DNA of 64,000 nt from an uncultured virus (IMG/VR IMGVR_UViG_3300009164_000062) (taxonomy: Duplodnaviria > Heunggongvirae > Uroviricota > Caudoviricetes). The stretch lies in IMG/VR virus record IMGVR_UViG_3300009164_000062. One strand, written 5' to 3'. Below the pieces are notes generated by a model. The model saw nothing but the letters and a program-made list of their open reading frames with translations, did no database searches and was not told the DNA's origin. The position numbers and the translations under genes are program-made. This document shows, in pieces, positions 10,852 to 64,000 of this stretch. Numbering within the stretch: position 1 is the stretch's first letter; every line of letters starts with the position of its first letter.

Positions 10852-10859
10852 TACTTATC
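10852..10859 (-). promoter_or_regulatory. Late promoter variant GATAAGTA
   Basis: 5 nt upstream of the resolvase ATG; overlaps the hldD stop. Confidence 0.45.
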
Positions 10860-46097: not shown

Positions 46098-46098
46098 A

Positions 46099-46106
46099 GA
46101 TAAATA
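46099..46106 (+). promoter_or_regulatory. Late promoter box GATAAATA
   Basis: Upstream of the fibre gene, followed by a GGAG RBS. Confidence 0.6.
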
Positions 46107-46130
46107 TATTAATATTGCGGAGTAAAATAA

Positions 46131-47339: not shown

Positions 47340-47351
47340 GAAGGAAAAATA

Positions 47352-48308: not shown

Positions 48309-48333
48309 AATTCTTTAGTATTGATTACATCCA

Positions 48334-48340
48334 GTAAATA
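48334..48340 (+). promoter_or_regulatory. Late promoter variant GTAAATA heading the modification operon
   Basis: Followed by AGGAG and ATG 48356. Confidence 0.45.
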
Positions 48341-48355
48341 CTTTCAGGAGTATAC

Positions 48356-48661
48356 ATGGATACTAAAGAACTAATCAATGAAGCTAAAGCACGGTTTAAT
48401 CATAATTCGGCTAAGGCTTATCTAAAAAGCAAATACCAAAGCAAATTAATAGTCGCTGACCAAGGCGGGCTATGGACAGCAACTCCCGAACTAATAGGAT
48501 TTTTATCTAGTATCAACAATAGGTATGTAGTTATATTAGATTCATACGAAAATCCTATTCGTGTTGATATTAACAAATTACAAATAAAATTAACAGAAAC
48601 TTATAACATTGTTATGGAACAATGGCATACTGAGTTATCAACATTAGAGAAGATTAGATGA
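48356..48661 (+). CDS. Hypothetical protein
   Basis: 101 aa, strong RBS, ATGA overlap with the next gene. Confidence 0.7.
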   Translation: MDTKELINEAKARFNHNSAKAYLKSKYQSKLIVADQGGLWTATPELIGFLSSINNRYVVILDSYENPIRVDINKLQIKLTETYNIVMEQWHTELSTLEKIR

Positions 48662-49461
48662 GTAAGGGTGTGTTGTTATTTGCATTTAACAACGGAACTA
48701 CTGACTATTTTAAAATGGCAGTAGCCACTGCAAACAGAGCCCGTGAATTCTTAAATCTAAAAACCACAGTAGTTACAGATTCCAATACAATTTTAGAGAA
48801 TTATTCTCATAATTTTGAGAATGTGATATTGGTTGATTCTGACAAAAGCAATAAAAATGTAGACAATCAAATATGGATCAACAAGGGAAGATATCAAGCA
48901 TATGACCTATCTCCGTATGATGAAACATTATTATTGGATACAGATTATCTTATCAATAGTGATACATTACTAAAACCATTTGAGTTATATGAAGATTTCA
49001 TGTGTCATAATACCACTGAGTTTTTAATGAAACCAGAGGCCGAGCAAGAGAAAATAAGCAAGTACTCTTTCAACACACTTTGGGCAACAGTGATTTACTT
49101 TAAAAAAACAAAAAAAACTAAACTAATATTCGACACTATAAAGATGGTTCAAGAAAACTATCAACATTATGTCAATATATATAACCCTACAGTAGGATTC
49201 TTTCGTAATGATTTTGCTTTGACCTTTGCACTACGTATAGTTAATGGGCAAACTGAGGATAAGAATAATTATATCCCTTGGCCACTAACACACGCGGATA
49301 AGGATGTTACAGTTATCTCAAATAATAATCATCCTTATAATGTTTCATATGCTTTATTATATGATAACCATACCCGACATAAAGTAAAGAAAGAATATAT
49401 TACGATTAAAGACAAAGACTTTCATATGCTCAGTAAAGAAAACTTTATGGAGGTAGTATGA
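48658..49461 (+). CDS. Putative GT-A fold glycosyltransferase
   Basis: GVLLFAFN...DY..MA, SPYDETLLLDTDY (DxD), WATVIYFKK, RNDFA. Confidence 0.6.
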   Translation: MSKGVLLFAFNNGTTDYFKMAVATANRAREFLNLKTTVVTDSNTILENYSHNFENVILVDSDKSNKNVDNQIWINKGRYQAYDLSPYDETLLLDTDYLINSDTLLKPFELYEDFMCHNTTEFLMKPEAEQEKISKYSFNTLWATVIYFKKTKKTKLIFDTIKMVQENYQHYVNIYNPTVGFFRNDFALTFALRIVNGQTEDKNNYIPWPLTHADKDVTVISNNNHPYNVSYALLYDNHTRHKVKKEYITIKDKDFHMLSKENFMEVV

Positions 49462-50222
49462 GTCATGGCTTTGTAATTATGGCACAGAACACATCATCTG
49501 TTGATTATGTAAAATGTGCAGAGCATTTATCTAAAAGTATTACTAGGGTCATGCCTGATGCCAGTATAACTATTATTACAGAAAACTTATTACCTTACGG
49601 GGACTTAGCTAAAGATAGTGATTGGAAACTAATCAATGATTGGCAAGTATATGAAGCCAGTCCATATGAATACACTATCAAACTTGAAGCGGATATGTTT
49701 ATTCCAAAAGATATTTCATATTGGTGGGAAGTATTAAAATCACGTGATTTAGTAGTAAGTAGTACGATTAGGGATTATACTAACCAAATCTCAGATGTTA
49801 AAGTATATAGAAATTTTATAACTAACAATCAATTACCAGACGTGTATAACGCAATCACATACTTTAAAAAGTCAGAGACCGCAGACAAGTTTTATAAAAT
49901 AGTACGACATGTTTTTGAGAATTGGGACGACTTCAAATCTATGCTAAAATGTGATGTTTCAGAAGTAGCAACTACAGATTGGGTATATAGTATTGCTTGT
50001 CATATTATGGGCGTAGAAAATACTACAATGCCCAATTTTAGCGAGTTTAGTTTTATACATATGAAATCTTTCATAAATAATCTTACAATGGATGATTGGA
50101 CTAAAGAATTGATATACGAATTTCAACCCGTACTTAAAATCGGGACGATTGTGCAAGAATATCCATTTCATTATCATATTAAATCGTTTAGTGATGTTAT
50201 AGGAGAACATAATGGAAAATGA
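49458..50222 (+). CDS. Putative GT-A fold glycosyltransferase (paralogue of the upstream gene)
   Basis: GFVIMAQN...DY..CA, SPYEYTIKLEADM, YNAITYFKKS, TDWVYS, F.HMK. Confidence 0.6.
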   Translation: MSHGFVIMAQNTSSVDYVKCAEHLSKSITRVMPDASITIITENLLPYGDLAKDSDWKLINDWQVYEASPYEYTIKLEADMFIPKDISYWWEVLKSRDLVVSSTIRDYTNQISDVKVYRNFITNNQLPDVYNAITYFKKSETADKFYKIVRHVFENWDDFKSMLKCDVSEVATTDWVYSIACHIMGVENTTMPNFSEFSFIHMKSFINNLTMDDWTKELIYEFQPVLKIGTIVQEYPFHYHIKSFSDVIGEHNGK

Positions 50223-50586
50223 AGAATTAGACCTTGGCGCAATGTTGTTTGAATATTCTAAAACTATTGAACCTAAATTACCCGTTCCCACGGAATTTAG
50301 GTTGTATTACAGTGAGGATGGTAGTATAATAACTTATTCATGTGAGGAAATTGAGGGTAATTATATTGTCATTGACGCTGAAACATTTGCTATAGGTAGG
50401 CAAGATATAAAAATAATGGACGGGAAGATTCAAGTTATGGAACCTACATTTATAGTAACTAAGTTAGTTGAAGCAGACAATGGAATTTCCTGTGCAGCCG
50501 AAGATATTAGTATTCCGGTTTCTGATGACCATGAAGGTGATAGCAAGAAATGGGAAATAAAACAAGATGAGTTCAAGTTTAATTGA
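50212..50586 (+). CDS. Hypothetical protein
   Basis: 124 aa acidic, FRLYY..DG.I..YS; overlaps both neighbours. Confidence 0.65.
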   Translation: MENEELDLGAMLFEYSKTIEPKLPVPTEFRLYYSEDGSIITYSCEEIEGNYIVIDAETFAIGRQDIKIMDGKIQVMEPTFIVTKLVEADNGISCAAEDISIPVSDDHEGDSKKWEIKQDEFKFN

Positions 50587-51514
50587 TGTAGCAGATTTAG
50601 ATTGTATTTACCTAAGTTATGACGAGCCACAAAAAGAAGAATTCTGGTTAAAAATTAAAAATATGGTGCCATGGGCACGTAGAGTAGACGGAGTTAAAGG
50701 TAGTGACGCCGCACATAAGGCAGCAGCCGAAGCAAGTGATACTGAACGTTTCATATTGATTGACGGGGACAACATGCCTAACATGGAGTTCTTCAATCTT
50801 ACCCTAGACTTCACAGACAAGCACGAAGATTACAAAAAAGCACAATATCGTTGGAGAGCAGTTAATGCTATCAACGGGTTGCGCTATGGAAACGGCGGCA
50901 TGAGTAGTTGGACAAAAGAGTACGTAATGAACATGCGTACACACGAAGCAAGTGATGGTAATGATACTCATACAGTTGACTTTTGTTTAGACTATAACAA
51001 CAGTTTGTATTGGAGTATGTACGATTGTTACAGCACAACTCACCCTAACGGTACACCTTTTCAAGCATGGCGCGCCGGATTTCGTGAGGGTGTAAAAATG
51101 TGTTTAGTCAACGGACGCAAACCTGAGATAGAAGAATTCAAACGCAATGTATCCGGTCGTAATTTCAATCACTTAACTATTTGGCACAATGTAGGTGCTG
51201 ATGTAGAGAACGGAGAATGGGCTATTTTAGGAGCACGTATGGGAACATATATGACTATGTTAACAGATTGGAATAGCAAACAAGTCCAATGGTTCGATAA
51301 CTACCCGTCAATGTGGGAAGAATGTAAAGATAAAGATCCTGTACGTGAATCTGCTTTGTTTGGAGTCTCATTAAGTGATAAGCTAGGCTTACCAATGTGT
51401 ACATTAGACGAATACCAAAGTAAATTTTTTAAGCGTCATTATAATAGTGACAAACACAATCTAGGTCCTCTAGTGCGTGAGATAGATGTAATACGAAAAA
51501 TAGAAGGTTGGTAA
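50567..51514 (+). CDS. Putative glycosyltransferase (GT2-like)
   Basis: YLSYDEP, RVDGVKGSDAAHKAAA, FILIDGDN (DxD), NGLRYGNGG, AWRAGFREGVK. Confidence 0.65.
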   Translation: MSSSLIDVADLDCIYLSYDEPQKEEFWLKIKNMVPWARRVDGVKGSDAAHKAAAEASDTERFILIDGDNMPNMEFFNLTLDFTDKHEDYKKAQYRWRAVNAINGLRYGNGGMSSWTKEYVMNMRTHEASDGNDTHTVDFCLDYNNSLYWSMYDCYSTTHPNGTPFQAWRAGFREGVKMCLVNGRKPEIEEFKRNVSGRNFNHLTIWHNVGADVENGEWAILGARMGTYMTMLTDWNSKQVQWFDNYPSMWEECKDKDPVRESALFGVSLSDKLGLPMCTLDEYQSKFFKRHYNSDKHNLGPLVREIDVIRKIEGW

Positions 51515-51517
51515 ACA

Positions 51518-52927
51518 ATGGATAATTATAAAAATCATTTAAATAATGTAAAACAAAAACTAGATGAGGTGAGCCCTAGTTTCTGTGTGGCAAAATGGAA
51601 GCAAGTTACAATGCATTTACAGAATGGACATACTCATAGTTGCCATCACCCTAGCACACATCTAGTGCCATTGGATGAGATTGCAGTTAATCCTTCTGCA
51701 CTTCACAATACTAATTTTAAAAAGCAACAACGCAAAATGATGTTAGAAGGAACTCGTCCTAGTGAATGTGACTATTGCTGGAGAGTAGAAGATAATTCTA
51801 CTGACAGTTTTTCGGATAGAGTATATAAAAGTGCAGACCAATGGGCATTTCCTCACGTAGCCGATATCACTAATAAATCATGGGATGATAATGTTGACCC
51901 TAGCTATGTAGAAGTATCATTTGGTAATGTCTGTAACTTCAAATGTAGTTATTGTGCCCCTCATATTAGCAGTCAGTGGATGGAAGAAATCGAACGTCAC
52001 GGTCCATATCCAACTGTCAATAAATTCAATAACTTGAATTGGATCAAAAGTCAAAATATGATGCCTATTGCTAACAAGGATGAAAACCCATACATAGATG
52101 CATTCTGGGCTTGGTGGCCTAAGATGTATTCTAGCCTACATCATTTTAGAATCACCGGCGGAGAACCATTATTAAACAAGAACACTTTCAAAGTGTTAGA
52201 TTATATTATTGCCAACCCTAATCCTAACTTAGAAGTTTCTATTAATACGAACATGAATCCTCCTGATGATTTGTTTGACAAGTTCCTAGAGAAATTGAAA
52301 ATCATTGTTGACGAGAAAAAACTTAAAAAGATTAAGATATTCACTAGTGCTGAGGCGCATGGTAAGCGAAGTGAATATATTAGATTTGGTATGGACTATG
52401 ATAAGTGGCTTAGTAATATTCACAAGACATACGAAACTATACCCACTATTCAGTTTACTGTAATGAGCACCTATAATATTTTAAGTGTGACTAGTTATAT
52501 TGAATTCTTAAATGATATATTACACATTAAACGCAAGTATGGTAAGTCTGATAGCAACAAGACCCCTATGTTGCTAGATATTCCTTATCTAAGATTCCCC
52601 GAACATCAGACTATATTTTTAGCAGACGAGGCTATGCTTCCGTTGATTCACGATCAAGTAACACACATGTATCGTAATCTAGAGTGTAAGAGTTGGGAAG
52701 GCACTGCTAATAAAGGATTTTATGAGCATGAAGCTGACAAACTAAAGCGCATCTATGAAATGGCAAAGAATGCAGTAGAAAACAAAAATGAATTTGTAGA
52801 CTGGAATCGTCACGATTTGGTTAAATTTGTAGATGAACATGACCTTCGTAGGGGAACAAACTTCTTAGAAACTTTTCCTGAAATGGAAAACTTTTATAAC
52901 ATGTGTAAGGAGGCGGCATTATTATGA
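51518..52927 (+). CDS. Radical SAM protein with extra Cys cluster (twitch/SPASM-like)
   Basis: CNFKCSYC (CxxxCxxC), TGGEPLL, NTN; N-terminal C...SCHH...CDYCW. Confidence 0.9.
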   Translation: MDNYKNHLNNVKQKLDEVSPSFCVAKWKQVTMHLQNGHTHSCHHPSTHLVPLDEIAVNPSALHNTNFKKQQRKMMLEGTRPSECDYCWRVEDNSTDSFSDRVYKSADQWAFPHVADITNKSWDDNVDPSYVEVSFGNVCNFKCSYCAPHISSQWMEEIERHGPYPTVNKFNNLNWIKSQNMMPIANKDENPYIDAFWAWWPKMYSSLHHFRITGGEPLLNKNTFKVLDYIIANPNPNLEVSINTNMNPPDDLFDKFLEKLKIIVDEKKLKKIKIFTSAEAHGKRSEYIRFGMDYDKWLSNIHKTYETIPTIQFTVMSTYNILSVTSYIEFLNDILHIKRKYGKSDSNKTPMLLDIPYLRFPEHQTIFLADEAMLPLIHDQVTHMYRNLECKSWEGTANKGFYEHEADKLKRIYEMAKNAVENKNEFVDWNRHDLVKFVDEHDLRRGTNFLETFPEMENFYNMCKEAALL

Positions 52928-53355
52928 AATTTATAGCACATAGAGGTAATATTCTAGGACCAAACGTTGAGTATGAAAATACTCCCGGCTACATACTATC
53001 AGCAATTGATAGTGGGTATGATGTAGAAGTAGATGTATGGTATATTAATGGTAAGATTATGTTAGGTCATGATGAACCTACACATGAAACAACATTAGAC
53101 TTTTTACAACGTGATGAAATTTGGGCACACGCTAAAAATTTACCATCATTAGAATACCTATTAAACAACACTGTTCATTGTTTTTGGCATGAGAATGATG
53201 AGAGAACATTGACTAGCAGAAACTATATTTGGACATACCCTGACAAAGATACTGTACCGAATAGTGTTTTGGTAGTGTTAACTGAACATCTAAATTTAAA
53301 AGATAAAAATATTTACGCAGTATGTGGGGATTATATTGAAACCTGGAAATCTTAA
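52924..53355 (+). CDS. Small GDPD/PLC-like phosphodiesterase-fold protein
   Basis: IAHRGN, ENTP, GYDVEVDVW, LGHD, WAHAKN, IWTYP, VCGDY. Confidence 0.7.
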   Translation: MKFIAHRGNILGPNVEYENTPGYILSAIDSGYDVEVDVWYINGKIMLGHDEPTHETTLDFLQRDEIWAHAKNLPSLEYLLNNTVHCFWHENDERTLTSRNYIWTYPDKDTVPNSVLVVLTEHLNLKDKNIYAVCGDYIETWKS

Positions 53356-54094
53356 AATAGCATTATGCTTCAGTGGTCAGCCTAGGACTTGGAGAAAATG
53401 TATTGAATCTTGGAAGCAACATGTTATCCAGAATAATAATGTTGACATATTTTGTCACCTTTGGGACTATAATTCTATACCAAACTCAATAGCAGATGGT
53501 CCTGCTGATACTTGGTTATCCCCCGAAGGTGATTTGGCTGAGTTAATTGGTATACTAAATCCAAAAAAATATATAATAGAACCGGCAAAAACTTTCGTTC
53601 CCATCAGAAAAAATCAGCCTATTGTTTTTTCTAACTTTTTAAGTCAGTACTATGGTATCATGTCAAGTGCTAGAATAAAAAGAGAATACGAAATTGAAAA
53701 CATGATTCAATATGATATAGTAATAAGAATGAGATATGATGCATTCTTTACGGCTCCTGTAATATATAACCAACATCCGAGTGTTATAGAAGATAACTCA
53801 ATGTACTGTTTTCACGTTGGTTGGGATCATCTTACCAATAGCGGTCGTTTAGGGGATATATTTTGGTATTCTGATTCACAGACTTATGATATCCTTGCTG
53901 ATTATTATTTAAACATACATACTATAAAATTGAAATATAGCTTTAATAGGAAACCTGATATGCACCAATTATTTTTTCACTACGCTAAAAAGAATAATAT
54001 CAAGTTAATTGTAAATCATTGGGATATCAAATTATTCCGTGAGTCAGCCGAACTAGCATTTTCCAAGGGCAAAGATGGATTCGAAATCTGGTAA
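53324..54094 (+). CDS. Putative glycosyltransferase-like protein
   Basis: KIALCFSGQPR, DIFCHLW, YDIVIRMRYD, D.FWY. Confidence 0.55.
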   Translation: MGIILKPGNLKIALCFSGQPRTWRKCIESWKQHVIQNNNVDIFCHLWDYNSIPNSIADGPADTWLSPEGDLAELIGILNPKKYIIEPAKTFVPIRKNQPIVFSNFLSQYYGIMSSARIKREYEIENMIQYDIVIRMRYDAFFTAPVIYNQHPSVIEDNSMYCFHVGWDHLTNSGRLGDIFWYSDSQTYDILADYYLNIHTIKLKYSFNRKPDMHQLFFHYAKKNNIKLIVNHWDIKLFRESAELAFSKGKDGFEIW

Positions 54095-54812
54095 AATTGC
54101 AATATGTATTAGTGGATTACTTAGAACGGGGATAAAAGCACATCCTTGTTTTAAAAATTTCTTTGGCGATTTAAATGCAGATATATTCTATCATACATGG
54201 GGATTGGATGACGAAACGCATAGAACAGTCAACGACCTATATAAGCCTACTAGTTATATCAACCAACAACCATTTGAATTGAATTCAATGGGGTCATTTG
54301 GAAACATGTTTTATAGCATAATGATGGCAAATGAATTGAAGAAGAAACATGAAATAAAAAATAACTTTCGGTATGACTTAGTAATCAAAACTAGGTTTGA
54401 TTTAGTTTTTCCAGAATTTAATAAATTTAGTAACTCAAAAATCGATCCTAGAACAATTTACAGTTCAGGTGGAGACAACGGAATCAATCATACTGATTAT
54501 GAACATCACGGAATAGCTGATTTAATTTTTTGGGGTGATAGTGAATCTATGGATATTGCTACTAATACGTTTATGTATTATAAGCATAAAGCATTACCCA
54601 ATAATCAGTTACTAATATCTGGTGTTAAATTTGATCCTGAGTCTAGTTTCTATAGTCCGGGTAATATGATTTATAATAGATGTATTATGCAAAATATTCA
54701 TGTAGTTAAGTTTGCTGCCTGGCTTGGTGAAGTGCCGTGGCGAGATGACGTAAGTGATTTAGATCCTTTTCGGGATTATACTTTAATAAGAGAAAGATAT
54801 CAAAGATTATGA
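54075..54812 (+). CDS. Putative glycosyltransferase-like protein (paralogue of the upstream gene)
   Basis: KIAICISGLLR, DIFYHTW, MFYSI..AN.LK, YDLVIKTRFD, DLIFWG. Confidence 0.55.
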   Translation: MDSKSGKIAICISGLLRTGIKAHPCFKNFFGDLNADIFYHTWGLDDETHRTVNDLYKPTSYINQQPFELNSMGSFGNMFYSIMMANELKKKHEIKNNFRYDLVIKTRFDLVFPEFNKFSNSKIDPRTIYSSGGDNGINHTDYEHHGIADLIFWGDSESMDIATNTFMYYKHKALPNNQLLISGVKFDPESSFYSPGNMIYNRCIMQNIHVVKFAAWLGEVPWRDDVSDLDPFRDYTLIRERYQRL

Positions 54813-55609
54813 AAAAACTAGTAGTAGTGGGAGATAGTTGGACATACGGTAGTGAGATGAAAGATCCAACACTTCCTACCACTGTCAATGACTGGGACGC
54901 AGAAAATGATACATATCGGAGTACTAGAATATGGCCTACAAAACTTGGTAATATGTTTGGGACCTCAGACGTAGTTAATCTAAGCTATCCTGCAGGTAGC
55001 AATGATAGAAGTGTTAGACTTTTAGTAGGATGGTTGACACAAGAATATCTAAGTAAAGGTAAAGATACAAGCGAATTATTTGTTGTAGTAGGGTTGACCA
55101 GTCCGGAACGAAAAGACTTCTTTTATGTAGATGAAAAAATACGTAACTGGATTACTATATGGCCAATGTGGTCACATGATTACATGCAAGAACCACTGCG
55201 TAGATTTGGTAGATTATATGCTGAATATTTTTGGAATGTAGAAGAATCTACACACAGATATCTGCAACAAATTTTCTATCTACAAACATTATTCAAACAT
55301 TATAATATTAAATTTTTGTTCTTTCAAGCATTCTATCAACGCCAAGATATGCATATTAAACAATGGACTGATGATCCTTATGCTAGACATTATCAAAGTC
55401 AACCGGATGGAATGGTATGGGACCTTATTGATGAAAAAACTTTTATGCATAAGAATGATGAGATCCATAGTTTTCACAACTATATTACAAGCCATGATCC
55501 TGATCCTGAAAAGAAATCAGTTATTCTAAATATGCATCCCAGTGAGTTAGGACACACACTGTGGGCAGAGCATATGAGAGATTATATTACGGAGAATAAT
55601 TTATGGTAA
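54809..55609 (+). CDS. SGNH/GDSL-like hydrolase or acyltransferase
   Basis: VGDSWTYG, NLS..AGSNDR, C-terminal HPSELGH..WA. Confidence 0.65.
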   Translation: MKKLVVVGDSWTYGSEMKDPTLPTTVNDWDAENDTYRSTRIWPTKLGNMFGTSDVVNLSYPAGSNDRSVRLLVGWLTQEYLSKGKDTSELFVVVGLTSPERKDFFYVDEKIRNWITIWPMWSHDYMQEPLRRFGRLYAEYFWNVEESTHRYLQQIFYLQTLFKHYNIKFLFFQAFYQRQDMHIKQWTDDPYARHYQSQPDGMVWDLIDEKTFMHKNDEIHSFHNYITSHDPDPEKKSVILNMHPSELGHTLWAEHMRDYITENNLW

Positions 55610-56379
55610 CACACATTGCAATATGCGGAGATAGTTTTGGCGTAGGTACTGGATTACCTGATGATAGATGTTTTGAAGATAGTTTCGGTGGAGTCGTTGC
55701 AAGTCATTTTGATTTACCTTTAAAAGTATATGCACGTGCAGGCTGTTGTAATTTTGTAATTTATCTTCAAGTAAAAAAGATTATAGAACAAATTCGCCGC
55801 GATCCATCTTATAAACCGTTAGTGGTAATCACTACTACATTCCATGAAAGATTAATTTTTCCATTAGATGACGGTACAAAATATAAAAAGCCAAACTTGT
55901 CAGATGTTGAATATAAATCATATATTCCATACCATGGTACAACACCTACTAACGGTAGAGAATTAGCATTTGGATCAAACGATGCAAGATTGATATCCGA
56001 AACAATCTCAAATATTAATTACTTTCAATGTGGAAAGGCACCGGGCATTGCTAAACTATTTGAAAAAGTTAATAAATCAAAATTTGAAGCAATCAAGTAT
56101 TATTATACCGAATTATTTGACACTGGTGTTAAAGGTGAGTATGATCAAGCATTAATAATTACGATGCATTTTTTGCTGAAAAAATTTAACATACCGCATA
56201 TGATTATGGGTTTCCCATCATTAGAACTTACTTATATTGAAAACTTCATGCCAAATGAATGGGGATATTATACAAGATTATATCCTGATACTATGGGTAG
56301 TTCACATTGTAATGAAGAGGGCAATAGGCTCGTAGGTGAAAATGTTATTAACTTTATTAAAGAACATCACTTGATATGA
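55603..56379 (+). CDS. SGNH/GDSL-like protein (second copy)
   Basis: CGDSFGVG, ARAGCCN, C-terminal D...SSHCNEEGN. Confidence 0.6.
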   Translation: MVTHIAICGDSFGVGTGLPDDRCFEDSFGGVVASHFDLPLKVYARAGCCNFVIYLQVKKIIEQIRRDPSYKPLVVITTTFHERLIFPLDDGTKYKKPNLSDVEYKSYIPYHGTTPTNGRELAFGSNDARLISETISNINYFQCGKAPGIAKLFEKVNKSKFEAIKYYYTELFDTGVKGEYDQALIITMHFLLKKFNIPHMIMGFPSLELTYIENFMPNEWGYYTRLYPDTMGSSHCNEEGNRLVGENVINFIKEHHLI

Positions 56380-57104
56380 ATATATTGTTTGGATTATGTG
56401 GCGCGGGTAAACGTTTTCGTGATGTGGGTTATACTATACCTAAATACATCATTGATGTTAATGGATCTCCCATGATTGAACATGCAGTAAAGACTTTAAA
56501 AATTTTGGGCGATGTATTTTTTATTGTATTGAAAGAACACATAGATCAATACCCGCAAATTAAAGATATATTGTCACCTATGGGTACTATCATAGTTAGC
56601 GAATTTACTACCCAGGGCGCCGCGCAAACATTGTTACTAGCCAAAGATTATATTGATTTAACTAAGCCCTTGATATCAGTTAACGGAGATCAATATTTAG
56701 ATTGGGACTCTAGTTGCTTTAATTCAATGCTATGCGATTATCCTAATACTTCATATATTTTAACATACAAGGAAAATGATACTAAGTGCAGTTATATTAA
56801 AAAAAATGAAAAAGGTGATATTATTGAAGTTAGAGAGAAACAAGTTATAAGCAATGACGCAACTGTAGGAGTGTATCATTGGGCAAAAGCATCTGATTTC
56901 TTTACGGATGCGGAAACAATGATTGCAGAAGATCACAAAGAGAATGGTGAATACTATGTTGCACCAGTTTATAATTATTCGATAAAGCGTGGGCTAAAAG
57001 TAAAAAATTATGAATTGCATAGTAAAGAGTTCTGGCCAATTGGCACACCAAAAGATTTAGAAAACTTTATTAACCGTAATGCCTATATGAATTTTGGAAA
57101 ATAG
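56376..57104 (+). CDS. Sugar-phosphate nucleotidyltransferase (NTP_transferase family)
   Basis: GAGKRF...GY..PK..I.V.G.PMI, TQGAAQT, NGDQ, EVREK..IS..AT.G.Y.W, NGEYYVAPVYN, GTP.DL. Confidence 0.82.
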   Translation: MNILFGLCGAGKRFRDVGYTIPKYIIDVNGSPMIEHAVKTLKILGDVFFIVLKEHIDQYPQIKDILSPMGTIIVSEFTTQGAAQTLLLAKDYIDLTKPLISVNGDQYLDWDSSCFNSMLCDYPNTSYILTYKENDTKCSYIKKNEKGDIIEVREKQVISNDATVGVYHWAKASDFFTDAETMIAEDHKENGEYYVAPVYNYSIKRGLKVKNYELHSKEFWPIGTPKDLENFINRNAYMNFGK

Positions 57105-57106
57105 AT

Positions 57107-57433
57107 ATGAAAATAGCACACATAGAACAATTCACAAAGGGTTGGTTTGTTGGTAACTTTGATCCTAGCTTGTTGAAAGCTGATTTTGAAGTAGGACTAC
57201 ATCAACACAAAGCCGGAGAATTCCACCAAGATCATTTTCATAAATTAGGTACAGAGATTAATGTTATAATAGAAGGTCACTTACTATTAAACGGAAATGA
57301 GTTCGGCCCGGGTGAAATTTTTGTATTAGAGCCATACGAAATTAGTCAAGTAGAGTATCTAACAGATGTTAAATTAATCGTAGTTAGAGATATTAGCGAT
57401 CCTAATGACAAATATGAAGTAGAAATAAAATGA
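57107..57433 (+). CDS. Cupin-fold protein (possible epimerase/isomerase)
   Basis: KGWFVGNF.P, H.H....E...IIEG...G.IF...P.E. Confidence 0.75.
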   Translation: MKIAHIEQFTKGWFVGNFDPSLLKADFEVGLHQHKAGEFHQDHFHKLGTEINVIIEGHLLLNGNEFGPGEIFVLEPYEISQVEYLTDVKLIVVRDISDPNDKYEVEIK

Positions 57434-58548
57434 ACATTTATATCAATGAGATACCCACAGACCATATTAAAGTAACATATCAAGTTACCTCTACTAAAAA
57501 TCTATCTATTGCGGCAGAGGCAATTGCTATAGGACAGAGTATCGGCAATCCATCTGTGCGAAATGAGTTTGAATCACCTGAATTAGTTAGTAATCATTCT
57601 GCTAAAATATTAGGAGATAAAAATGAATGGTCTAAAATAACTGATGGTGAAATAATTATTGGTTATCCGTTAGTAAATATTGATTGGGATGAAGATGGTG
57701 TATCACAACTACTTTGTATGATTCAAGGTGGACAGCTTGACATAGATCATGTAGTTAAGTGTAGAGTAACCGACATTGATATAACTAATTTGCCTATGCT
57801 TAAGCCAAAGTTTGGTCTTTCGGGTATAAGAGAATTAACTAAAACATATGATCGACCTTTATTAGGATGTATATTAAAACCTAAGACAGGACTACGCCCT
57901 AAAGAACTATCATTATTAGTTAAGGAAATGATTGATGGTGGGGCTAACATTATTAAAGAAGATGAAATTTTAGGATCACCCTCATACTGCAATTTAGAAT
58001 CACGCTTACCCTACATTAGAGATATTATACAAGATAAGAATGTAGTTTATCTTACTTGCATTAACAGCAATCCAGACAAACTTATAGAAAAGACTAATAC
58101 TGTTAAGATGCTAGGGGTTAATGGTATACATATTAATATCTGGAGTGGTTTAGGTAGTTATGCCGCTGTTCGAAATAAAAATTATCCACTAGTCATGCAT
58201 TACCAAAAGAGTGGTGATAAGATTTTAACCAATATACATAATCCATATGGTATCGATTGGATAGTTCTATGCAAGTTAGCAATCATTAGTGGTATCGATA
58301 CTATACATGCCGGAATGTGGGGCGGATACTTAAGTGATGATCCTGTGTACCTTAAAAATATTATGGACACATTAACTAGTCACAATGTAGTCCCTGCATT
58401 GAGTTGTGGAATGAATGCAACATTAATACCACAAGTTACCGATAAGTTTGGTGTTGATTACTTAGCGAATGTAGGCGGGGCATGTCACACACATCCTGAT
58501 GGAATTAAGGCTGCTGTACGGGAATTACGAAATGCCATCGACAGATAA
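57430..58548 (+). CDS. RuBisCO-like protein (form IV RLP)
   Basis: PKFGLSGIR...RPLLGCILKPKTGL, GGANIIKEDE (carbamylation Lys motif), HYQKSG, DTIHAG, PALSCGM, NVGGACHTHPDGIKAAV. Confidence 0.9.
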   Translation: MNIYINEIPTDHIKVTYQVTSTKNLSIAAEAIAIGQSIGNPSVRNEFESPELVSNHSAKILGDKNEWSKITDGEIIIGYPLVNIDWDEDGVSQLLCMIQGGQLDIDHVVKCRVTDIDITNLPMLKPKFGLSGIRELTKTYDRPLLGCILKPKTGLRPKELSLLVKEMIDGGANIIKEDEILGSPSYCNLESRLPYIRDIIQDKNVVYLTCINSNPDKLIEKTNTVKMLGVNGIHINIWSGLGSYAAVRNKNYPLVMHYQKSGDKILTNIHNPYGIDWIVLCKLAIISGIDTIHAGMWGGYLSDDPVYLKNIMDTLTSHNVVPALSCGMNATLIPQVTDKFGVDYLANVGGACHTHPDGIKAAVRELRNAIDR

Positions 58549-59485
58549 CATCACAATACTTAAAGGCGGTTCTTTAAATTCAACATGTCTACATGAAAAC
58601 TCTATGGGTAAGTTTGTTAGAAAAAAAATAGCTACAGATAAGAATAGAGAATATGGATATGTTCGATGGTATAGTCAGCTAAAGAAATTACAACGTTATA
58701 ATAGTATGTTTCCTGGATTTGTTCCAAAGGTCTTGGATGCAGGAGTTAATGATAATGAAGCATACTTTGATATTGAATATATTGATGGTATAGATATTAA
58801 AACTTTGTTTAAGAATAATCTAATAGATGATGTAGAAAAGTTGAATCAATCATTATGGGAAGCGTTTGACTTGATACATCATAGGTCATATAGTCCACTG
58901 CGTAGTTCTCTTATGCTTTACTTTATGGAAGAAGTAGAACAGAAACTACATGATGCACTAGAGTTCCCAGAGTTCAGAGACTTTTACATGATGGATGTAT
59001 ATGAGTATAGGGGTGAAACATTTAGGGGCATGATCGGACAGCACGATAAGTTCAAAAAACTATTCAATAGAGATATTACTAGTGAAGGCTATGTCCACGG
59101 CAATCCCACACTTGAAAACATACTATACAATACTGATACAAACAAAATAACCTTTATTGATTTATATGAAGAAGGGATAGTTGATAGTAGATATTCAGAT
59201 TATAGTCAGGTGTTACAATGCAGTAATAGTCACTATGGATTGATAAATGATTCAATAGTAACAATTAATGATAATCAGATTATGTCCAATTATATTATAC
59301 CAAATAAATTAGCAGAGTTCAATTCGTTGTTTATAGAAAATATTGAAGATAACACATCGTTGGTAATGCTATTTGAGGCTACCCAATATTTTAGAATGTT
59401 ACCGTTTAAGTGTCATAGTGGTAACATATCTCACGCTAAGTTTTTTTATGGGTATGGATGCTATCTAGTAAATAAATTACTATGA
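58532..59485 (+). CDS. Aminoglycoside/choline phosphotransferase-fold kinase-like protein
   Basis: LKGGSLNST...FVRK, P.V....FDIEYIDG, HGNPTLENILY, FIDL; start set at ATG 58532. Confidence 0.7.
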   Translation: MPSTDNITILKGGSLNSTCLHENSMGKFVRKKIATDKNREYGYVRWYSQLKKLQRYNSMFPGFVPKVLDAGVNDNEAYFDIEYIDGIDIKTLFKNNLIDDVEKLNQSLWEAFDLIHHRSYSPLRSSLMLYFMEEVEQKLHDALEFPEFRDFYMMDVYEYRGETFRGMIGQHDKFKKLFNRDITSEGYVHGNPTLENILYNTDTNKITFIDLYEEGIVDSRYSDYSQVLQCSNSHYGLINDSIVTINDNQIMSNYIIPNKLAEFNSLFIENIEDNTSLVMLFEATQYFRMLPFKCHSGNISHAKFFYGYGCYLVNKLL

Positions 59486-60573
59486 TATGTAACATAAAAA
59501 CATCACTCTTGATTGAATTTGAAATCCGTAAAGCTGTCAATGTATTATCGTTATCCGAGGTTACTAGTAAAAGAAAAATTGTTATAATTGACAGAAATGT
59601 TTATGAGTTATATTCCGATCAACTATTTGATGACGTAGATTCGTTGTTATTTATAGACTCGTCCGAAGAAAACAAAGATTGGGCAAATGCGGAAATGGTA
59701 CTAACCTTCTTAGAAGAAAATAAAATATTACGTAGGTCAGAACCAGTCATAGCAATAGGTGGCGGAGTCTTATTAGACTTAGTAGGATTTTGCTGTAGTA
59801 TATATCGTAGGGGTATTCCTTACATTCGTATACCCACGACATTACTAGCAATCGTTGACGCTAGTGTGGGAGCAAAAACAAGCATAAATCATTTTAATAG
59901 AAGAAATCGTTTGGGTAGTTTTTATCCACCACAACTAACATTGATTGACACTACGTTTATCAAAACACAATCCGATAGAGAAATATCTAATGGCTTTGCA
60001 GAGATATTGAAATTAGCAATCGTGTTAGATAGTAAGTTGTTTGAATTAATAGAAACAGATTCAGATAAGTTACTACAGTGCAAATTTCAAAATACCACAC
60101 ATTCAACTGAAATAATTGAACGGGCAATTGCAGGTATGACCAAAGAACTTAATGATAATTTGTGGGAGCAAGAATTAGAAAGACCAGTAGATTTTGGTCA
60201 TTCATTCAGTCCTCTAATTGAAATGAAGAACCTACCTAATCTACTTCACGGAGAAGCAGTTATACTAGATTGTTTATTAAGTTGCTGTATATCAACTGTT
60301 AGAAACCTTCTTTCAGCGGATGAGTTAACTAGAATATTTAATTTGACTAGAAAAATGAATCTACCTGTAACTCATACTGATTTTTTAAATAGCACATTAT
60401 TGTTAGAAGGCTTGTCTGATGTAATGAAGCACAGAAACGGAAATCAATACTTACCTATACCAGCATCTATTGGACAGTGTAAAATCATCAATGACCTAAC
60501 ACCTACTGAATTAGAATCAGCAATACAACTAATGAGATTATATGAAAAAGACCATATTGATTACTGGCACTAG
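59482..60573 (+). CDS. Sugar-phosphate cyclase, EEVS-like (2-epi-5-epi-valiolone synthase; DHQS superfamily)
   Basis: AIGGGVLLDLVGF, RRGIPYIRIPTTLLAIVDASVGAKT, RNRLGSF, NGFAEILK, EL..NLWE..L.R.VDFGHSFSP, LLHGEAV. Confidence 0.8.
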   Translation: MICNIKTSLLIEFEIRKAVNVLSLSEVTSKRKIVIIDRNVYELYSDQLFDDVDSLLFIDSSEENKDWANAEMVLTFLEENKILRRSEPVIAIGGGVLLDLVGFCCSIYRRGIPYIRIPTTLLAIVDASVGAKTSINHFNRRNRLGSFYPPQLTLIDTTFIKTQSDREISNGFAEILKLAIVLDSKLFELIETDSDKLLQCKFQNTTHSTEIIERAIAGMTKELNDNLWEQELERPVDFGHSFSPLIEMKNLPNLLHGEAVILDCLLSCCISTVRNLLSADELTRIFNLTRKMNLPVTHTDFLNSTLLLEGLSDVMKHRNGNQYLPIPASIGQCKIINDLTPTELESAIQLMRLYEKDHIDYWH

Positions 60574-61207
60574 TAGTGGTCTAGGTTTAGCTCTGGCAAA
60601 ACACTATAGCAAGAATCACAATGTTATTGGATTAAGTAGAACCAATGTAGAAATGCCTAATTATACTCATCATATTTGTGATATTAGTAACTTTGATAAC
60701 GTATCTAAAACATTTTATTCCATCGGTGATAGTGAAATTGATTTACTGATTAATAATGCAGGGGTATTTGATATGGTCAAGTTTACTCAAACATCTATCC
60801 ATACTATTGACCGTGTTATTAATACTAACCTGTCAGGTGCCATGTATGTAACCAGATTAGCATTAGAGTCAATGCCAGATCATAGTAAAATAGTCTTTAT
60901 CAATAGTGTAGCAGGATTAGAAGAATTAGAGAATCAAAGTATATATTGTGCTAGTAAGTATGGTCTAACTGCATTTGCTGGAATACTTGGTAAAGAACTA
61001 AGAGACAGACATATCAAAGTCTCTAGCATACACCCCGGTGGGATTAATACTCCATTATGGGATAATACCCCATACCCGTTAGGAGATGCTACTAATGCAA
61101 TGGATCCAAATTCTATAATAGAAATTATCGACCTAATTGTAAACAGTAAATATGATATTGATTACAAAACTGTCAAAATGTTTCCGTCTATTGAATGGCA
61201 TAACTGA
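60542..61207 (+). CDS. Short-chain dehydrogenase/reductase
   Basis: TGTSSGLG, LINNAG, NSVAG, YCASK, PGGINT. Confidence 0.92.
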   Translation: MKKTILITGTSSGLGLALAKHYSKNHNVIGLSRTNVEMPNYTHHICDISNFDNVSKTFYSIGDSEIDLLINNAGVFDMVKFTQTSIHTIDRVINTNLSGAMYVTRLALESMPDHSKIVFINSVAGLEELENQSIYCASKYGLTAFAGILGKELRDRHIKVSSIHPGGINTPLWDNTPYPLGDATNAMDPNSIIEIIDLIVNSKYDIDYKTVKMFPSIEWHN

Positions 61208-61217
61208 AAGATAAACT

Positions 61218-61334
61218 ATGAGAAACTTATTTCAAACACTATATTATAATACAATTGGAAAATTAGTTAGAGAATACAAATATCGTAAACGACTTAAAGA
61301 GTTGAAGAAACGAGATCCATTTATCTATAAGTGA
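61218..61334 (+). CDS. Small basic peptide (38 aa; not in ORF track)
   Basis: MRNLFQTLYYNTIGKLVREYKYRKRLKELKKRDPFIYK*; fills the gap between the SDR and carbamoyltransferase genes. Confidence 0.65.
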   Translation: MRNLFQTLYYNTIGKLVREYKYRKRLKELKKRDPFIYK

Positions 61335-61336
61335 CA

Positions 61337-62827
61337 ATGAAAAATACAAATTACATAGGAATATCCGCTGGATTCCATGATGCATCTTTAGCTGTAATCA
61401 AAGACGGCGACATATTATTTGCGGGTCATAATGAACGATATAGCGGGATAAAAAATGATAAAGATATAGGCTCTGCAATAGTCAAAGATGCATTGCAATA
61501 TGTTCAAGGTGACTATGAGTTACATTACTATGAACGTCCTTGGTTAAAGTACTTGAGACAATTACGCTCAGGGGAAAATCCAAATTTAAACACATTATTT
61601 CCTAGCAGATACTTAGCTCAAGGTGCTTACAAGAGCCTAGGTAAAAAGAAAATACATACTCATGGTCATCATCTTTGCCATGCGGCTGCTGGGTTTCAAA
61701 CAAGTAATTTTACAGAAGCCACAGTATTGATAATTGATGCCATTGGGGAGTTTGACACTATAAGCGTCTGGGATGCTAGATACGATAACAATCATAAAGC
61801 TGTGTATAAAAAAATATACAGTAAAAAATACCCTGACAGTTTAGGTTTATTTTACAGTTCGTTAACAGATAGGATTGGATTAAAACCAAACGAAGAAGAA
61901 TACATTACAATGGGTATGGCAGCATATGGTGATAGTAAATACTATCCACAGATGCATATGGATCTGCTATCCGATAGTTACAACATAGATTTTAAAGACA
62001 ATTTACATTTGGGATTTCCGGGTGAATATTTACCAGATGCTAGTAATGAAGATTTAGCCGCCAGTGGACAATTACTATTAGAAGTCTTATTAAAAAATAT
62101 ATTACAACGTGCAAAAATTAACGGTTGTAGTAAGAATCTAGTATACGGCGGCGGTGTAGCACTAAACTGTTTAGCAAATAGATTTCTAGGAGAATACTTT
62201 GATAATATATGGATTATGCCTAGCCCCGGTGATAGTGGTAGTAGCCTTGGTGCTGCCGCTCTGGCTTTTGGGGGTAGAGTTAACTGGACCAATTCTTATC
62301 TCGGGTATGATATTCCTGGCCCTTATCCCGTTAATCAGTTATTGGATAGGCTACTTACTGAACAAATTGTGGGAGTTGCCTCAGGACGAGCCGAGTTCGG
62401 CCCCCGCGCACTCGGAAACCGTAGCCTCCTTGCAGACCCTAGAGGCAGCAAGATTAAGGAGAAAGTAAATGAAATTAAACGAAGACAGAAGTTCAGACCC
62501 TTTGCGCCAGTCATTCTGGAAGAGTATGTTCATAATTATTTTAACATGCCTGTCAATTGGCGTGATAGTCAGTATATGCAAGTCATCAGTACTTGTAGGT
62601 ATCCTGACTTATATCCTGCTATCGTCCATGTTGACGGCACTAGTCGTGTCCAAACTGTCCCGAATGATGGTAGCGGAATCAGAGAACTCCTTGAAAAATG
62701 GTATGTCTTAACTGGTTGTCCTATGTTGCTTAACACATCACTAAACATTAGGGGTGAGCCAATGGTTAATACTAGATTAGATGCAGATAGATTTGAAATG
62801 CATTATGGTATAAAGGTTCTTTCGTGA
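61337..62827 (+). CDS. Carbamoyltransferase (NodU/CmcH/TobZ family)
   Basis: GIS..FHDAS, ERYS..KND, HHLCHAA, DAIGE, MGMAAYG, GGVALNC, PGDSGS.LG, EFGPRALGNRS, FRPFAP, HVDGTSR.QTV, LNTSLN..GEP. Confidence 0.95.
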   Translation: MKNTNYIGISAGFHDASLAVIKDGDILFAGHNERYSGIKNDKDIGSAIVKDALQYVQGDYELHYYERPWLKYLRQLRSGENPNLNTLFPSRYLAQGAYKSLGKKKIHTHGHHLCHAAAGFQTSNFTEATVLIIDAIGEFDTISVWDARYDNNHKAVYKKIYSKKYPDSLGLFYSSLTDRIGLKPNEEEYITMGMAAYGDSKYYPQMHMDLLSDSYNIDFKDNLHLGFPGEYLPDASNEDLAASGQLLLEVLLKNILQRAKINGCSKNLVYGGGVALNCLANRFLGEYFDNIWIMPSPGDSGSSLGAAALAFGGRVNWTNSYLGYDIPGPYPVNQLLDRLLTEQIVGVASGRAEFGPRALGNRSLLADPRGSKIKEKVNEIKRRQKFRPFAPVILEEYVHNYFNMPVNWRDSQYMQVISTCRYPDLYPAIVHVDGTSRVQTVPNDGSGIRELLEKWYVLTGCPMLLNTSLNIRGEPMVNTRLDADRFEMHYGIKVLS

Positions 62828-64000
62828 TTGATTCGTCAGAATTAGATAGAAGGGAACAATTATGGTCAAGTGGTTATTGGGATATCCCTGAAAACATTGA
62901 TACTAGTAATTTTGATTTTGATTGGAGACCATTCAAGTATGACAGACCATACATACATCAGTTTGGTACACAACATCAAAAGACAGGTGGACCAAGATTT
63001 GTAATACCAAAAAACGAAGGTATAAAATATCAAACAAGCCAACATGCAATAAGATTACCTACGCCAGACTTAAGAAATTGGAGACCACTAATAGCAAACG
63101 TAGAGTTTGATTATAGCTGGCATCCTGATGAAACAGAACCGCCTTTCGTGTATGTATTTGGAAATCAATGGTATGACTCAGTTACAATGCCAACTATGCA
63201 GTACAAAATTTCAGGTGCAACTGAAAAAAAATATATTGATACAATTAAAGCCACATTAACACCTGATAAAACTAATTGGATTATTCCAGATGATATAGAA
63301 GATGATTTTGATTATAGTTGGGTACCGAGTCCTACAGAGCCACCACTAATCTGGGAATTCGGAACACAACATCAAAAGACAGGTGGTCCTAGTTATGTTG
63401 CAAAAAACGGAGTTCATACTAAGTACTCATCGGCACTAATTGCTACTAAGAAAGACAATAAAGAAGATAGATGCTGGAGACCTTTATTACCTAACATTGA
63501 TTTTGATTTTAGTTGGCATCCAGATAAAAATGATCCGCCCTACATATATGTGTTTGGCAATCAATGGTATGATAGTCTAACAATGCCTACGTTACTGTAT
63601 CGTGTAAAGGGTGCTACTGAAAAGAAGTATATGACTGATATCAAAGTCACATTAACTCCTAATAAATCTATGTGGACTATACCAGATGACATAGAAGATG
63701 ACTTTGATTATAGCTGGCTACCGCACCCAGACGAACCAGCATATATATGGCAGTTTGGAACACAATGGCAAAAAAATGGCGGCCCCAAATACAATGCGCC
63801 TAACGCAACTGTAATAAAACATTTTGATTTGCTCAGAGCAACTAAAAAAAATAATAAAGATAATCGTGCATATAGACCAGTGGTCTCAAATGTAGAGTTT
63901 GATTATAGCTGGCATCCTGATGAAGACGAACCTCCTTACATATATGTATTTGGAAATCAATGGCATAACTCAGAAGATATGCCTACTATTTTGTATCGTG
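62824..64000 (+). CDS. Tandem-repeat protein (FDYSWxP repeats), runs off the window; not in ORF track
   Basis: GTG start in a GTGA overlap with the carbamoyltransferase stop; open frame to 64000. Confidence 0.8.
   Translation, partial: MIDSSELDRREQLWSSGYWDIPENIDTSNFDFDWRPFKYDRPYIHQFGTQHQKTGGPRFVIPKNEGIKYQTSQHAIRLPTPDLRNWRPLIANVEFDYSWHPDETEPPFVYVFGNQWYDSVTMPTMQYKISGATEKKYIDTIKATLTPDKTNWIIPDDIEDDFDYSWVPSPTEPPLIWEFGTQHQKTGGPSYVAKNGVHTKYSSALIATKKDNKEDRCWRPLLPNIDFDFSWHPDKNDPPYIYVFGNQWYDSLTMPTLLYRVKGATEKKYMTDIKVTLTPNKSMWTIPDDIEDDFDYSWLPHPDEPAYIWQFGTQWQKNGGPKYNAPNATVIKHFDLLRATKKNNKDNRAYRPVVSNVEFDYSWHPDEDEPPYIYVFGNQWHNSEDMPTILYR
62911..64000 (+). repeat. Alternating 65/67-codon repeat units (396-nt higher-order period)
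   Basis: FD(Y/F)xW starts at 62911, 63106, 63307, 63502, 63703, 63898. Confidence 0.9.

Follow-up and report, generated by a model that had tools for sequence, protein, structure and literature searches.

A phage operon that probably joins a C7-cyclitol unit to a RuBisCO-like protein cassette

A 64,000-nucleotide stretch of DNA from an uncultured virus (IMG/VR IMGVR_UViG_3300009164_000062), here called the window, carries eight plus-strand genes at 56376–62827 that bring together a RuBisCO-like protein (RLP) and a cyclase that appears to be an EEVS, the enzyme that forms 2-epi-5-epi-valiolone. A preliminary description of this DNA had listed the eight genes, and the open reading frames (ORFs) agree with it exactly in position and strand:

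56376–57104, plus strand: sugar-1-phosphate-type nucleotidyltransferase (NTase) of the RLP-linked ('A') type (Pfam NTP_transferase 2.6e-08; PDB 4EVW 9.9e-17)
57107–57433, plus strand: small metal-site cupin of 108 aa with a complete cupin motif 1
57430–58548, plus strand: predicted non-carboxylating RLP of 372 aa (Pfam RuBisCO_large 2.3e-33)
58499–59485, plus strand: APH/protein-kinase-fold protein, putative cyclitol kinase (AlphaFold model and Foldseek)
59482–60573, plus strand: probable EEVS-type sedoheptulose-7-phosphate cyclase (DHQ_synthase and DHQS_C domains; ValA-like residues)
60542–61207, plus strand: classical short-chain dehydrogenase/reductase (SDR), putative ketoreductase for the cyclitol ketone (Pfam adh_short 1.7e-35)
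61218–61334, plus strand: basic ORF of 38 aa, the 'small peptide' of the preliminary description
61331–62827, plus strand: NodU/CmcH-type O-carbamoyltransferase (Carbam_trans_C 2.5e-48, Carbam_trans_N 7.3e-33, phrog_1601 3.5e-89)

Comparison with related loci indicates that the operon is probably two cassettes joined, each found separately elsewhere, and that the whole is soluble, co-directional and glycan-building. Cassette A contains the NTase, cupin and RLP, while cassette B is a kinase-like, EEVS and SDR unit whose predicted product, an activated C7-cyclitol, is well supported by comparison.

The window is part of a large T4-core myovirus from a lake, with genes for a major head protein, prohead protease, portal, late sigma factor, and baseplate hub and wedge proteins. 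The portal shares ~50–55% identity with the portals of jumbo phages, among them Atu_ph07 and PA5oct, and the GC content runs from 31 to 40%. The tail and baseplate module at 17421–47339 lies upstream of the operon, as previously described. From 48658 to 63999 all genes lie on the plus strand with junctions of -50 to +10 nt, forming a gap-free same-strand run of at least 19 genes that includes the eight of the operon; the last 50 nt of the RLP gene are also the first 50 nt of the kinase-like gene. Promoter-like and terminator-like sites stand at shuffle level in a scan of the window (88 versus 84.7 expected, and 7 versus 6.1). None of the 23 ORFs at 45477–63999 contains a transmembrane-like segment, which is consistent with cytoplasmic glycosylation; a 19-residue hydrophobic window above 1.6 occurs only once, at the EEVS's glycine-rich NAD loop.

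Fourteen further DNA runs from lake and freshwater metagenomes hold 0.37–0.61 of the stretch's sampled words, and a 44-kb fragment (record G001) is identical over the operon. Short contigs from four metatranscriptome libraries (at most three studies), 90–99% alike, together span every gene between the NTase and the SDR, both included, and some run across the junctions RLP/kinase, kinase/EEVS and EEVS/SDR; they leave parts of 51000–56200 and 61400–62280 without cover, which has no bearing either way. A search of the GenBank phage collection, in which near-identical records may be left out, matched the operon nowhere at the DNA level and the RLP nowhere by tblastn, and gave for the cyclase only aroB on host-like or contaminating records at 27–34% identity.

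The cyclase and its partner genes

The cyclase has the two-domain architecture of 3-dehydroquinate synthase (DHQS)-like proteins (Pfam DHQ_synthase 3.5e-36, DHQS_C 3.3e-22). Its best match among solved structures is the validamycin EEVS, ValA (4P53; 282.9 bits, E 3.3e-83), followed by DDGS (5TPR, 187.9 bits), the best DHQS (3OKF, 154.1) and DOIS (2D2X, 81.4). The motif 'VDFGHSFSP' is common to the cyclase and ValA, its Asp being replaced by Ala in DDGS and by Asn in DHQS; the His of 'KHR' is likewise common to both and is Thr in DDGS, and the His of the DHQS 'GH' is Pro in the cyclase, as in ValA. Across 21 of 21 relatives, taken from phages and metagenome-assembled genomes (MAGs), five residues are invariant (E174, D237, H240, H256 and H317); they correspond to the Glu-His-His metal ligands together with the EEVS-type Asp and His. 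We take the Asp before the first His ligand and the 'KHR' His to be the fingerprint sites that separate EEVS from DDGS, presumably as in Kean 2014. The existence of such sites among these cyclases is described by Osborn et al. (eLife 2015).

An aroB-type DHQS, serving the phage as an auxiliary gene for aromatic amino acids, is the name that most automatic annotations of the relatives carry. It is also the best NCBIfam model for the cyclase, at 216 bits under a cutoff of 305, in a collection that holds no EEVS model. This assignment is scarcely credible given the gap between ValA and the best DHQS (283 versus 154 bits), the ValA-like Asp and Pro at the DHQS Asn and 'GH' His positions, and the lack of any other shikimate gene nearby in Pfam and NCBIfam scans. 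The EEVS-type assignment made in the preliminary description stands, as judged from scores and residues, and the enzyme does not appear to be a DHQS.

By sequence, the neighbouring kinase-fold protein gives a weak Pfam APH match (E 0.0035). Because the profile of its family reached only protein kinases in the PDB, at E ~0.1, a fold search was needed. The AlphaFold model (pLDDT 89.3) has a bilobal kinase fold, and Foldseek matches it to APH(2'')-IVa (2.7e-08), APH(4)-Ia and fructosamine-3-kinase (FN3K), all with E ~1e-08. K42, N202, N207 and D221 stay unchanged in 14 of 14 phage kinase-like sequences; by motif position we take K42, N207 and D221 to be the beta-3 Lys, the loop Asn and the Mg-binding Asp, respectively. 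One relative (P0306), with the loop motif HGN, is a kinase-like/EEVS fusion.

A profile of the kinase-like protein detects 108 viral contigs, and we counted genes in 80 of these loci, near-duplicate contigs included. The EEVS follows the kinase-like gene in 79 loci and is absent from none (one is cut), and the SDR follows the EEVS in 77, again absent from none (three cut). An NTase lies upstream of the kinase-like gene in 75 of 78 uncut loci (absent from three, with two cut), and a GT-A-like gene is present in 64 of the 80. The cyclase thus travels as a fixed unit with the kinase-fold protein, SDR and NTase, to which a GT-A-fold transferase is usually added. A cyclitol would need these classes of enzyme to be made, activated and transferred. 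Because the synteny is kept on dozens of other contigs, a chance arrangement is excluded.

The NTase upstream of this unit is of two types. In 58 of the 78 uncut loci it is a distinct protein, 21–28% identical to that of the window, and no RLP is present; in 16 the window-type NTase is accompanied by an RLP. The remaining loci have the window-type NTase without an RLP (one), an RLP without an NTase (one) or neither (two), or are cut (two), so that an RLP occurs in 17 of the 78.

Among genomes of 185,579 species, the kinase-like protein occurs on four cellular contigs only, all from MAGs or single-amplified genomes (SAGs). All four carry the kinase-like, EEVS and SDR genes, and two also carry an NTase. 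On the three long contigs the unit sits amid GT2, GT1, GtrA, Wzx-type flippase and PMT_2 genes, with citrate synthase, HhH-GPD, or an AI-2E transporter and form III RuBisCO with an isomerase as cellular neighbours. An apparent RLP beside the cassette in one of these, the Woesearchaeota contig L051, was rejected, as it is an ordinary form III RuBisCO with a ribose-1,5-bisphosphate isomerase neighbour.

The RuBisCO-like protein cassette and its junction with the cyclase unit

Alignment of the RLP to form III enzymes suggests a RuBisCO large-subunit fold that keeps the carbamate-Lys/Mg motif and has lost the carboxylation residues. K-x-K, K-E-D-E and the equivalents of H327, S379/G381 and G403 are kept, whereas H294 is Gln, R295 is Lys and H298 is Asp, the loop-6 Lys is missing, and E60, T65, W66 and N123 are replaced (in what we take to be RuBisCO numbering). 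Its K176-E-D178-E179 lines up with K-D-D-E and is unchanged in 24 of 24 sequences. The adjoining cupin has the full motif G-x5-HxH-x4-E-x6-G (G37, H43, H45, E50 and G57), with H43, H45 and E50 invariant in nine of nine relatives, and its profile matches quercetin 2,3-dioxygenase (3.6e-05) and Cupin_2 among solved structures. The NTase upstream of both is the window's only RmlA/GlmU-like enzyme; no second copy was found.

The RLP profile detects 401 viral contigs. Counts cover 79 of the 80 best loci plus earlier ones, leaving out three near-copies (L004, L008 and L011) and four entries on the same contigs (L013–L015 and L017), with other near-copies remaining. An NTase is present in 75 of the 79, the cupin in 68 and a small phosphodiesterase-like protein in 53, while a radical SAM protein (8/79) or a carbamoyltransferase (6/79) is near the RLP less often. 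Only 8 of the 79 contain the EEVS and kinase-like protein, leaving 71 without an EEVS. Among 29 longer relatives of the RLP, 27 are NTP_transferase–RuBisCO_large fusions; the other two (P0121 and P0122; 813–817 aa, 46–47% identical) have an extra region without a known domain. Upstream gene order in the three closest RLP-only loci (L006, L007 and L009) matches that of the window, and in L009 a carbamoyltransferase follows directly after the RLP, with no EEVS.

Fusions of a HAD phosphatase to the RLP-type NTase also occur (L012 7877–9235 and L045 2425–3795; 452–456 aa, ~40% identical to the window's NTase) and belong to RLP or related cassettes. In three contigs the RLP cassette lies within a large phage glycan island (L010 3556–18241, L012 2194–13793 and L006 1130–3954) that adjoins tail sheath and tube genes. 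These islands contain GDP-mannose 4,6-dehydratase, C- and O-methyltransferases, GT6, GT7, GT11, GT25 and UDP-GlcNAc 2-epimerase.

The preliminary description had proposed the RLP and cupin as isomerase or epimerase steps of the cyclitol route. In its strongest form, this would be one integrated pathway in which both act on a phosphorylated keto-cyclitol, for example by enediol epimerisation, before a single NTase. Support comes from the 16 of 78 uncut loci whose only nearby NTase is of the RLP type with the RLP directly upstream, from an arrangement kept in one clade down to 57–64% EEVS identity, from the 50-nt overlap of the RLP and kinase-like genes, and from the lack of a second NTase or extra glycosyltransferase in the window. 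An alpha-hydroxy-ketone with a phosphate a few atoms away would also be an RLP-type ligand. However, 58 of 78 loci run the cyclitol unit with their own NTase and without RLP or cupin, 71 of 79 RLP loci have no EEVS, and the NTase–RLP fusions make up 27 of the 29 longer relatives, on contigs that may or may not carry an EEVS. The catalytic residues of RLP and cupin are the same in EEVS-linked and EEVS-free loci, which gives no sign of a new RLP substrate. Because of these fusions, separate loci and unchanged residues, the RLP and cupin are not supported as cyclitol steps, and we regard a single integrated pathway as distinctly unlikely.

The two-cassette reading accounts for the junction more simply. 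In a tree of 28 EEVS sequences (midpoint root, no outgroup, with partial and near-duplicate loci left out), the RLP-linked sequences form one side of a single branch (support 89/84; 88% of bootstrap trees). The simplest account is that the kinase-like, EEVS and SDR genes were inserted once behind an RLP, apparently without their usual NTase and transferase. The best solved match of both NTase types is 4EVW, so the two could stand in for each other. Conserved co-occurrence of the operon's genes, which had been suggested as a check, therefore holds within each group (kinase-like, EEVS, SDR and NTase; NTase, cupin and RLP) but not for all of them as one unit.

Flanking glycan and structural genes

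The genes on either side of the operon, in the same array, are:

51518–52927, plus strand: Twitch-domain radical SAM protein (NCBIfam NF033640 7.8e-98, 328 bits against a cutoff of 170)
52924–53355, plus strand: 143-aa protein with a GDPD/PLC-like phosphodiesterase motif (H6, R7, E35, D37, H49 and D50 invariant in 8 of 8)
53324–54094, plus strand: putative GT-A-fold transferase, phrog_13607 (AlphaFold pLDDT 79.5)
54075–54812, plus strand: second GT-A-like paralogue, phrog_13607 (PHROG 6.1e-11; aligns with the family)
54809–55609, plus strand: DUF6071 protein with an N-terminal GDS-type motif (Pfam DUF6071 1.7e-18; G8, S10, H243 and H249 invariant)
55603–56379, plus strand: protein with an N-terminal G-D-S motif and a C-terminal D...H pair (G9, D10, S11, D229 and H235 invariant in 7 of 7)
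62824–63999, plus strand: protein running off the window, the next gene of the array, with a 4-nt overlap with the carbamoyltransferase stop

The radical SAM protein accompanies the RLP cassette in some lineages. For the 143-aa protein, a PDB profile search gave a weak match over the GDPD-like N-terminal stretch (E 0.046), and among named Atlas clusters it comes nearest to GDPD (0.85) and Menorin_N (0.81), neither of which reaches the 0.9 level; a phosphodiesterase is a lead only. A fusion of this domain with the GT-A-like domain was considered and rejected, since the 386-aa protein of L105 matches the former only, at its C terminus. A single ORF, in L107, matched both domains, and single-linkage clustering had overstated the link.

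The glycosyltransferase-like genes noted upstream are borne out by the GT-A fold of the protein at 53324–54094 and by its paralogue. Foldseek matches the model to BoGT6a (8.4e-07, TM 0.43–0.50), and VIA matches it to Mnn9 (Z 11.9), ColGalT1 (Z 11.1), GlmU (Z 9.8) and IspD (Z 9.6); the family profile gave no PDB match by sequence. Since NTases share the GT-A fold and appear among these matches, the transferase function is inferred.

We presume from its motifs that the DUF6071 protein is possibly an SGNH-type esterase or acyltransferase. The protein at 55603–56379 matches only acetyl xylan esterase in the PDB profile search (E 0.17), and an SGNH-like assignment is a possible lead. Pfam at E up to 1 gave nothing for 52924–53355, 55603–56379, 49458–51514 or 62824–63999, and the last has no family match in Pfam, NCBIfam or PHROG scans. 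The 38-aa ORF is 97% conserved in two near-identical contigs, with weak matches at other positions of two glycan islands (L018, 47%, E 9e-06; L009, 46%, E 1e-04). In L003 and L004, the genes from NTase to SDR are 95–99% identical to those of the window and the carbamoyltransferase only 58%, which suggests a local recombination swap.

Further upstream, a single 5503-aa ORF at 28799–45310 (plus strand) follows the baseplate wedge genes, with an FG-GAP repeat as its only Pfam signal; it is possibly a giant fibre and candidate glycan acceptor. A separate minus-strand set at 10855–13048 comprises four ADP-heptose-like genes, all below NCBIfam cutoffs:

12656–13048, minus strand: HldE domain II-like adenylyltransferase (1.6e-36)
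11947–12702, minus strand: HldE domain I-like PfkB kinase (3.1e-38)
11636–11950, minus strand: small HAD phosphatase, member of the ADP-heptose-like set
10855–11676, minus strand: HldD-like epimerase (6.9e-59)

Besides including a second, unrelated kind of nucleotidyltransferase, this set gives the phage another route that consumes sedoheptulose 7-phosphate.

Glycosylation of DNA is known from T4-type phages, and this phage has T4-like core genes. Phage DNA might accordingly be modified by the activated cyclitol or by the product of the RLP cassette. We consider this very improbable: window scans show no hydroxymethylase or DNA glycosyltransferase family, the cellular homologues lie in surface-glycan loci, and the island abuts the tail and baseplate genes.

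Proposed route and comparison with known systems

From the families, folds, active-site residues, linkage and fusions described above, we infer a route whose chemical steps, nucleotide, acceptor and shared NTase are predictions. The EEVS-type cyclase would convert host sedoheptulose 7-phosphate to 2-epi-5-epi-valiolone, or a close stereoisomer, and phosphate. The SDR would reduce the ring ketone, and the kinase-fold protein would phosphorylate one of the ring hydroxyls, probably the pseudo-anomeric one that has just been formed. An NTase would turn the cyclitol phosphate into an NDP-cyclitol, from which a GT-A-fold enzyme would pass the cyclitol or cyclitol phosphate to an acceptor. Because cassette B was apparently inserted without its usual NTase, the RLP-type enzyme at 56376–57104 is presumed to serve the cyclitol. 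Cassette A, comprising the NTase, cupin, RLP and phosphodiesterase-like protein at 52924, would make a different activated sugar, with the RLP enolising or isomerising a ketose phosphate next to the nucleotidyl transfer step. The SGNH-like proteins and carbamoyltransferase could decorate the glycan, with either a structural protein of the phage or a cytoplasmic glycan intermediate of the host as the likely acceptor.

Several observations weigh against this reading. The window yielded neither a cassette-B-type NTase nor an extra transferase, and the fusions tie its one NTase to the RLP. The cellular examples are four MAG or SAG contigs, one of which (L049) is only 4 kb, and the locus counts include near-duplicates. 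GT-A fold matches are moderate (TM 0.4–0.5, Z no higher than 11.9), the cyclase data fit EEVS and EVS, which differ in stereochemistry, equally well, and the fingerprint sites bear names that we presume. Because RNA libraries can hold DNA, the metatranscriptome contigs only hint at transcription. Saturated carbasugar-NDPs make poor glycosyl donors. The donor of the known pseudo-glycosyltransferases is GDP-valienol, which is unsaturated (PMC9200736). The phage route may need either a dehydration step that has escaped notice or transfer in the form of cyclitol phosphate. CDP-alcohol donors pass on an alcohol phosphate, and a cyclitol phosphate could possibly be handled alike.

The route is weakest at the kinase-fold protein, whose catalytic base is missing. 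The catalytic loop is HGNPTLEN, in which Asn takes the position of the catalytic Asp of APH and protein kinases; the protein lacks the H-x-D-x4-N loop of APH kinases and has the ATP and Mg residues. Its profile retrieved 835 representatives at E ≤0.001 from a library of 1.84 billion proteins, 95 of them at ≤1e-30. Of the best 150 of these 835, 125 align over the loop (93 HGN, 27 HGD and 5 other). The first 95 contain 79 HGN and 0 HGD, the latter being found in distant relatives only. Such distant HGD proteins include fusions of NTase, HAD and kinase, of HAD and kinase, of LPG_synthase_TM and kinase, and of Radical-SAM and kinase, the first in the order expected for sugar activation. Because an invariant Asn replaces the Asp, kinase activity is not assured and another use of ATP is possible; because the ATP and Mg residues are intact, catalysis is expected. 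A separate relative, P0286, carries a C-terminal GIY-YIG/NUMOD3 homing-endonuclease module and has the loop AGN, not HGN.

This odd active site leaves room for a non-activating role, in which the cyclitol would be a free small molecule (an inhibitor, signal, osmolyte or sunscreen precursor) made during infection and directed at the host or at competitors. Known C7-cyclitols are free natural products, and the characterised EEVS products named in a 2026 review (acarbose, validamycin, kirkamide and gadusol) are all small molecules. Such a role is unlikely given the NTase upstream in 75 of 78 loci and the GT-A-like gene in 64 of 80. In addition, the cellular copies lie inside polysaccharide loci with flippase, GT2, GT1 and PMT genes, and Pfam scans of the window show no methyltransferase-oxidase, aminotransferase or pseudo-glycosyltransferase.

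An activated cyclitol also occurs in the closest known parallel. In the GDP-valienol branch of acarbose and validamycin biosynthesis, as given in PMC9200736, the EEVS AcbC/ValA is followed by the kinases AcbM/ValC and AcbU, the phosphatase AcbJ, the NTase AcbR/VldB and the pseudo-glycosyltransferases AcbS/VldE. The phage unit shares an EEVS acting on sedoheptulose 7-phosphate and the logic of cyclitol, cyclitol phosphate, NDP-cyclitol and transfer. The family types used here for the actinomycete enzymes are in part general background. The phage unit differs in having only three or four genes, in a kinase that is APH/protein-kinase-like with a loop Asn rather than ROK-type, in a product that is probably saturated, and in its setting in phage and cell-surface glycan loci, not an antibiotic cluster. 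Pfam and NCBIfam scans of 49458–63999 show none of the families of the ROK-type 7-kinase, 2-epimerase, dehydrogenase/dehydratase or 7-phosphatase. No AcbO-, AcbL- or AcbJ-type enzymes were found for the phage unit, nor any pseudo-glycosyltransferase of the AcbS/VldE type, the transferase candidates having a GT-A fold. The resemblance to these pathways in the preliminary description thus holds for the enzyme classes but not for the kinase type, the AcbO-, AcbL- and AcbJ-type steps or the pseudo-glycosyltransferase.

The route likewise shares with the ADP- and GDP-heptose pathways (GmhA, HldE/HddA, GmhB, HddC and HldD) its sedoheptulose 7-phosphate source and its kinase, phosphatase and NTase logic. 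In those pathways an isomerase leads to a true heptose, whereas the phage cyclase would form a carbocycle with the phosphate removed first.

The statement that no such phage system had been described remains apt for the EEVS part. No publication on a phage EEVS was found in the literature searched, judged by titles and abstracts on valiolone and phage, and the words 'phage' and 'polysaccharide' are absent from the 2026 review. It does not extend to the RLP part. Jaffe, Castelle, Dupont and Banfield (2019, PMC6389311) report 'form IV-like' RLPs of phages and Beckwithbacteria, with ~80 sequences for the phage RLPs, some on Myoviridae, and leave the function of the phage RLPs open. By description only, those proteins resemble the one studied here in being divergent, non-carboxylating, and borne on large myovirus-type contigs from many environments. 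The fixed partners (NTase 75/79, cupin 68/79 and phosphodiesterase-like protein 53/79) and the NTase fusions (27/29) are added here.

An RLP adjoining a cupin is also found in the MTA-isoprenoid shunt of Rhodospirillum rubrum and R. palustris (RPA2169/RPA2170), where, according to PMC5893883, the RLP is a ketose-1-phosphate 1,3-isomerase and the adjacent cupin acts on its product. The phage pair differs in its ties, which are to an NTase and glycosyltransferases and not to MtnP/MtnA. The methylsulfurylase is not among the solved structures matched by the phage cupin profile, and the phage RLP is no nearer any solved RLP than form III enzymes.

We return to the reading of two joined cassettes that supply activated sugars for glycan building. 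A fixed, widespread cassette in viral and cellular glycan loci would point to an unrecognised surface-glycan building block, and would mean that infection drains the host pentose-phosphate pool in a new way. Phage RLPs gain a concrete, testable setting in sugar activation, not carbon fixation, and a kinase-fold subfamily with a conserved non-canonical active site is flagged. A bolder version, which we regard as a long shot, is that phages and some planktonic bacteria and archaea build glycans containing a seven-carbon carbasugar, a 'pseudo-heptose', from sedoheptulose 7-phosphate by means of a minimal set (kinase-like protein, EEVS, SDR and NTase), that in this lineage the set has become part of the RLP cassette and the RLP and cupin also act on a phosphorylated keto-cyclitol, and that the Asp-to-Asn kinase-like enzyme performs a non-canonical phosphoryl or nucleotidyl transfer. 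If true, the RuBisCO superfamily would thereby gain its first carbocyclic substrate, and the pseudo-heptose linkage would not be cleavable by glycosidases in the usual way.

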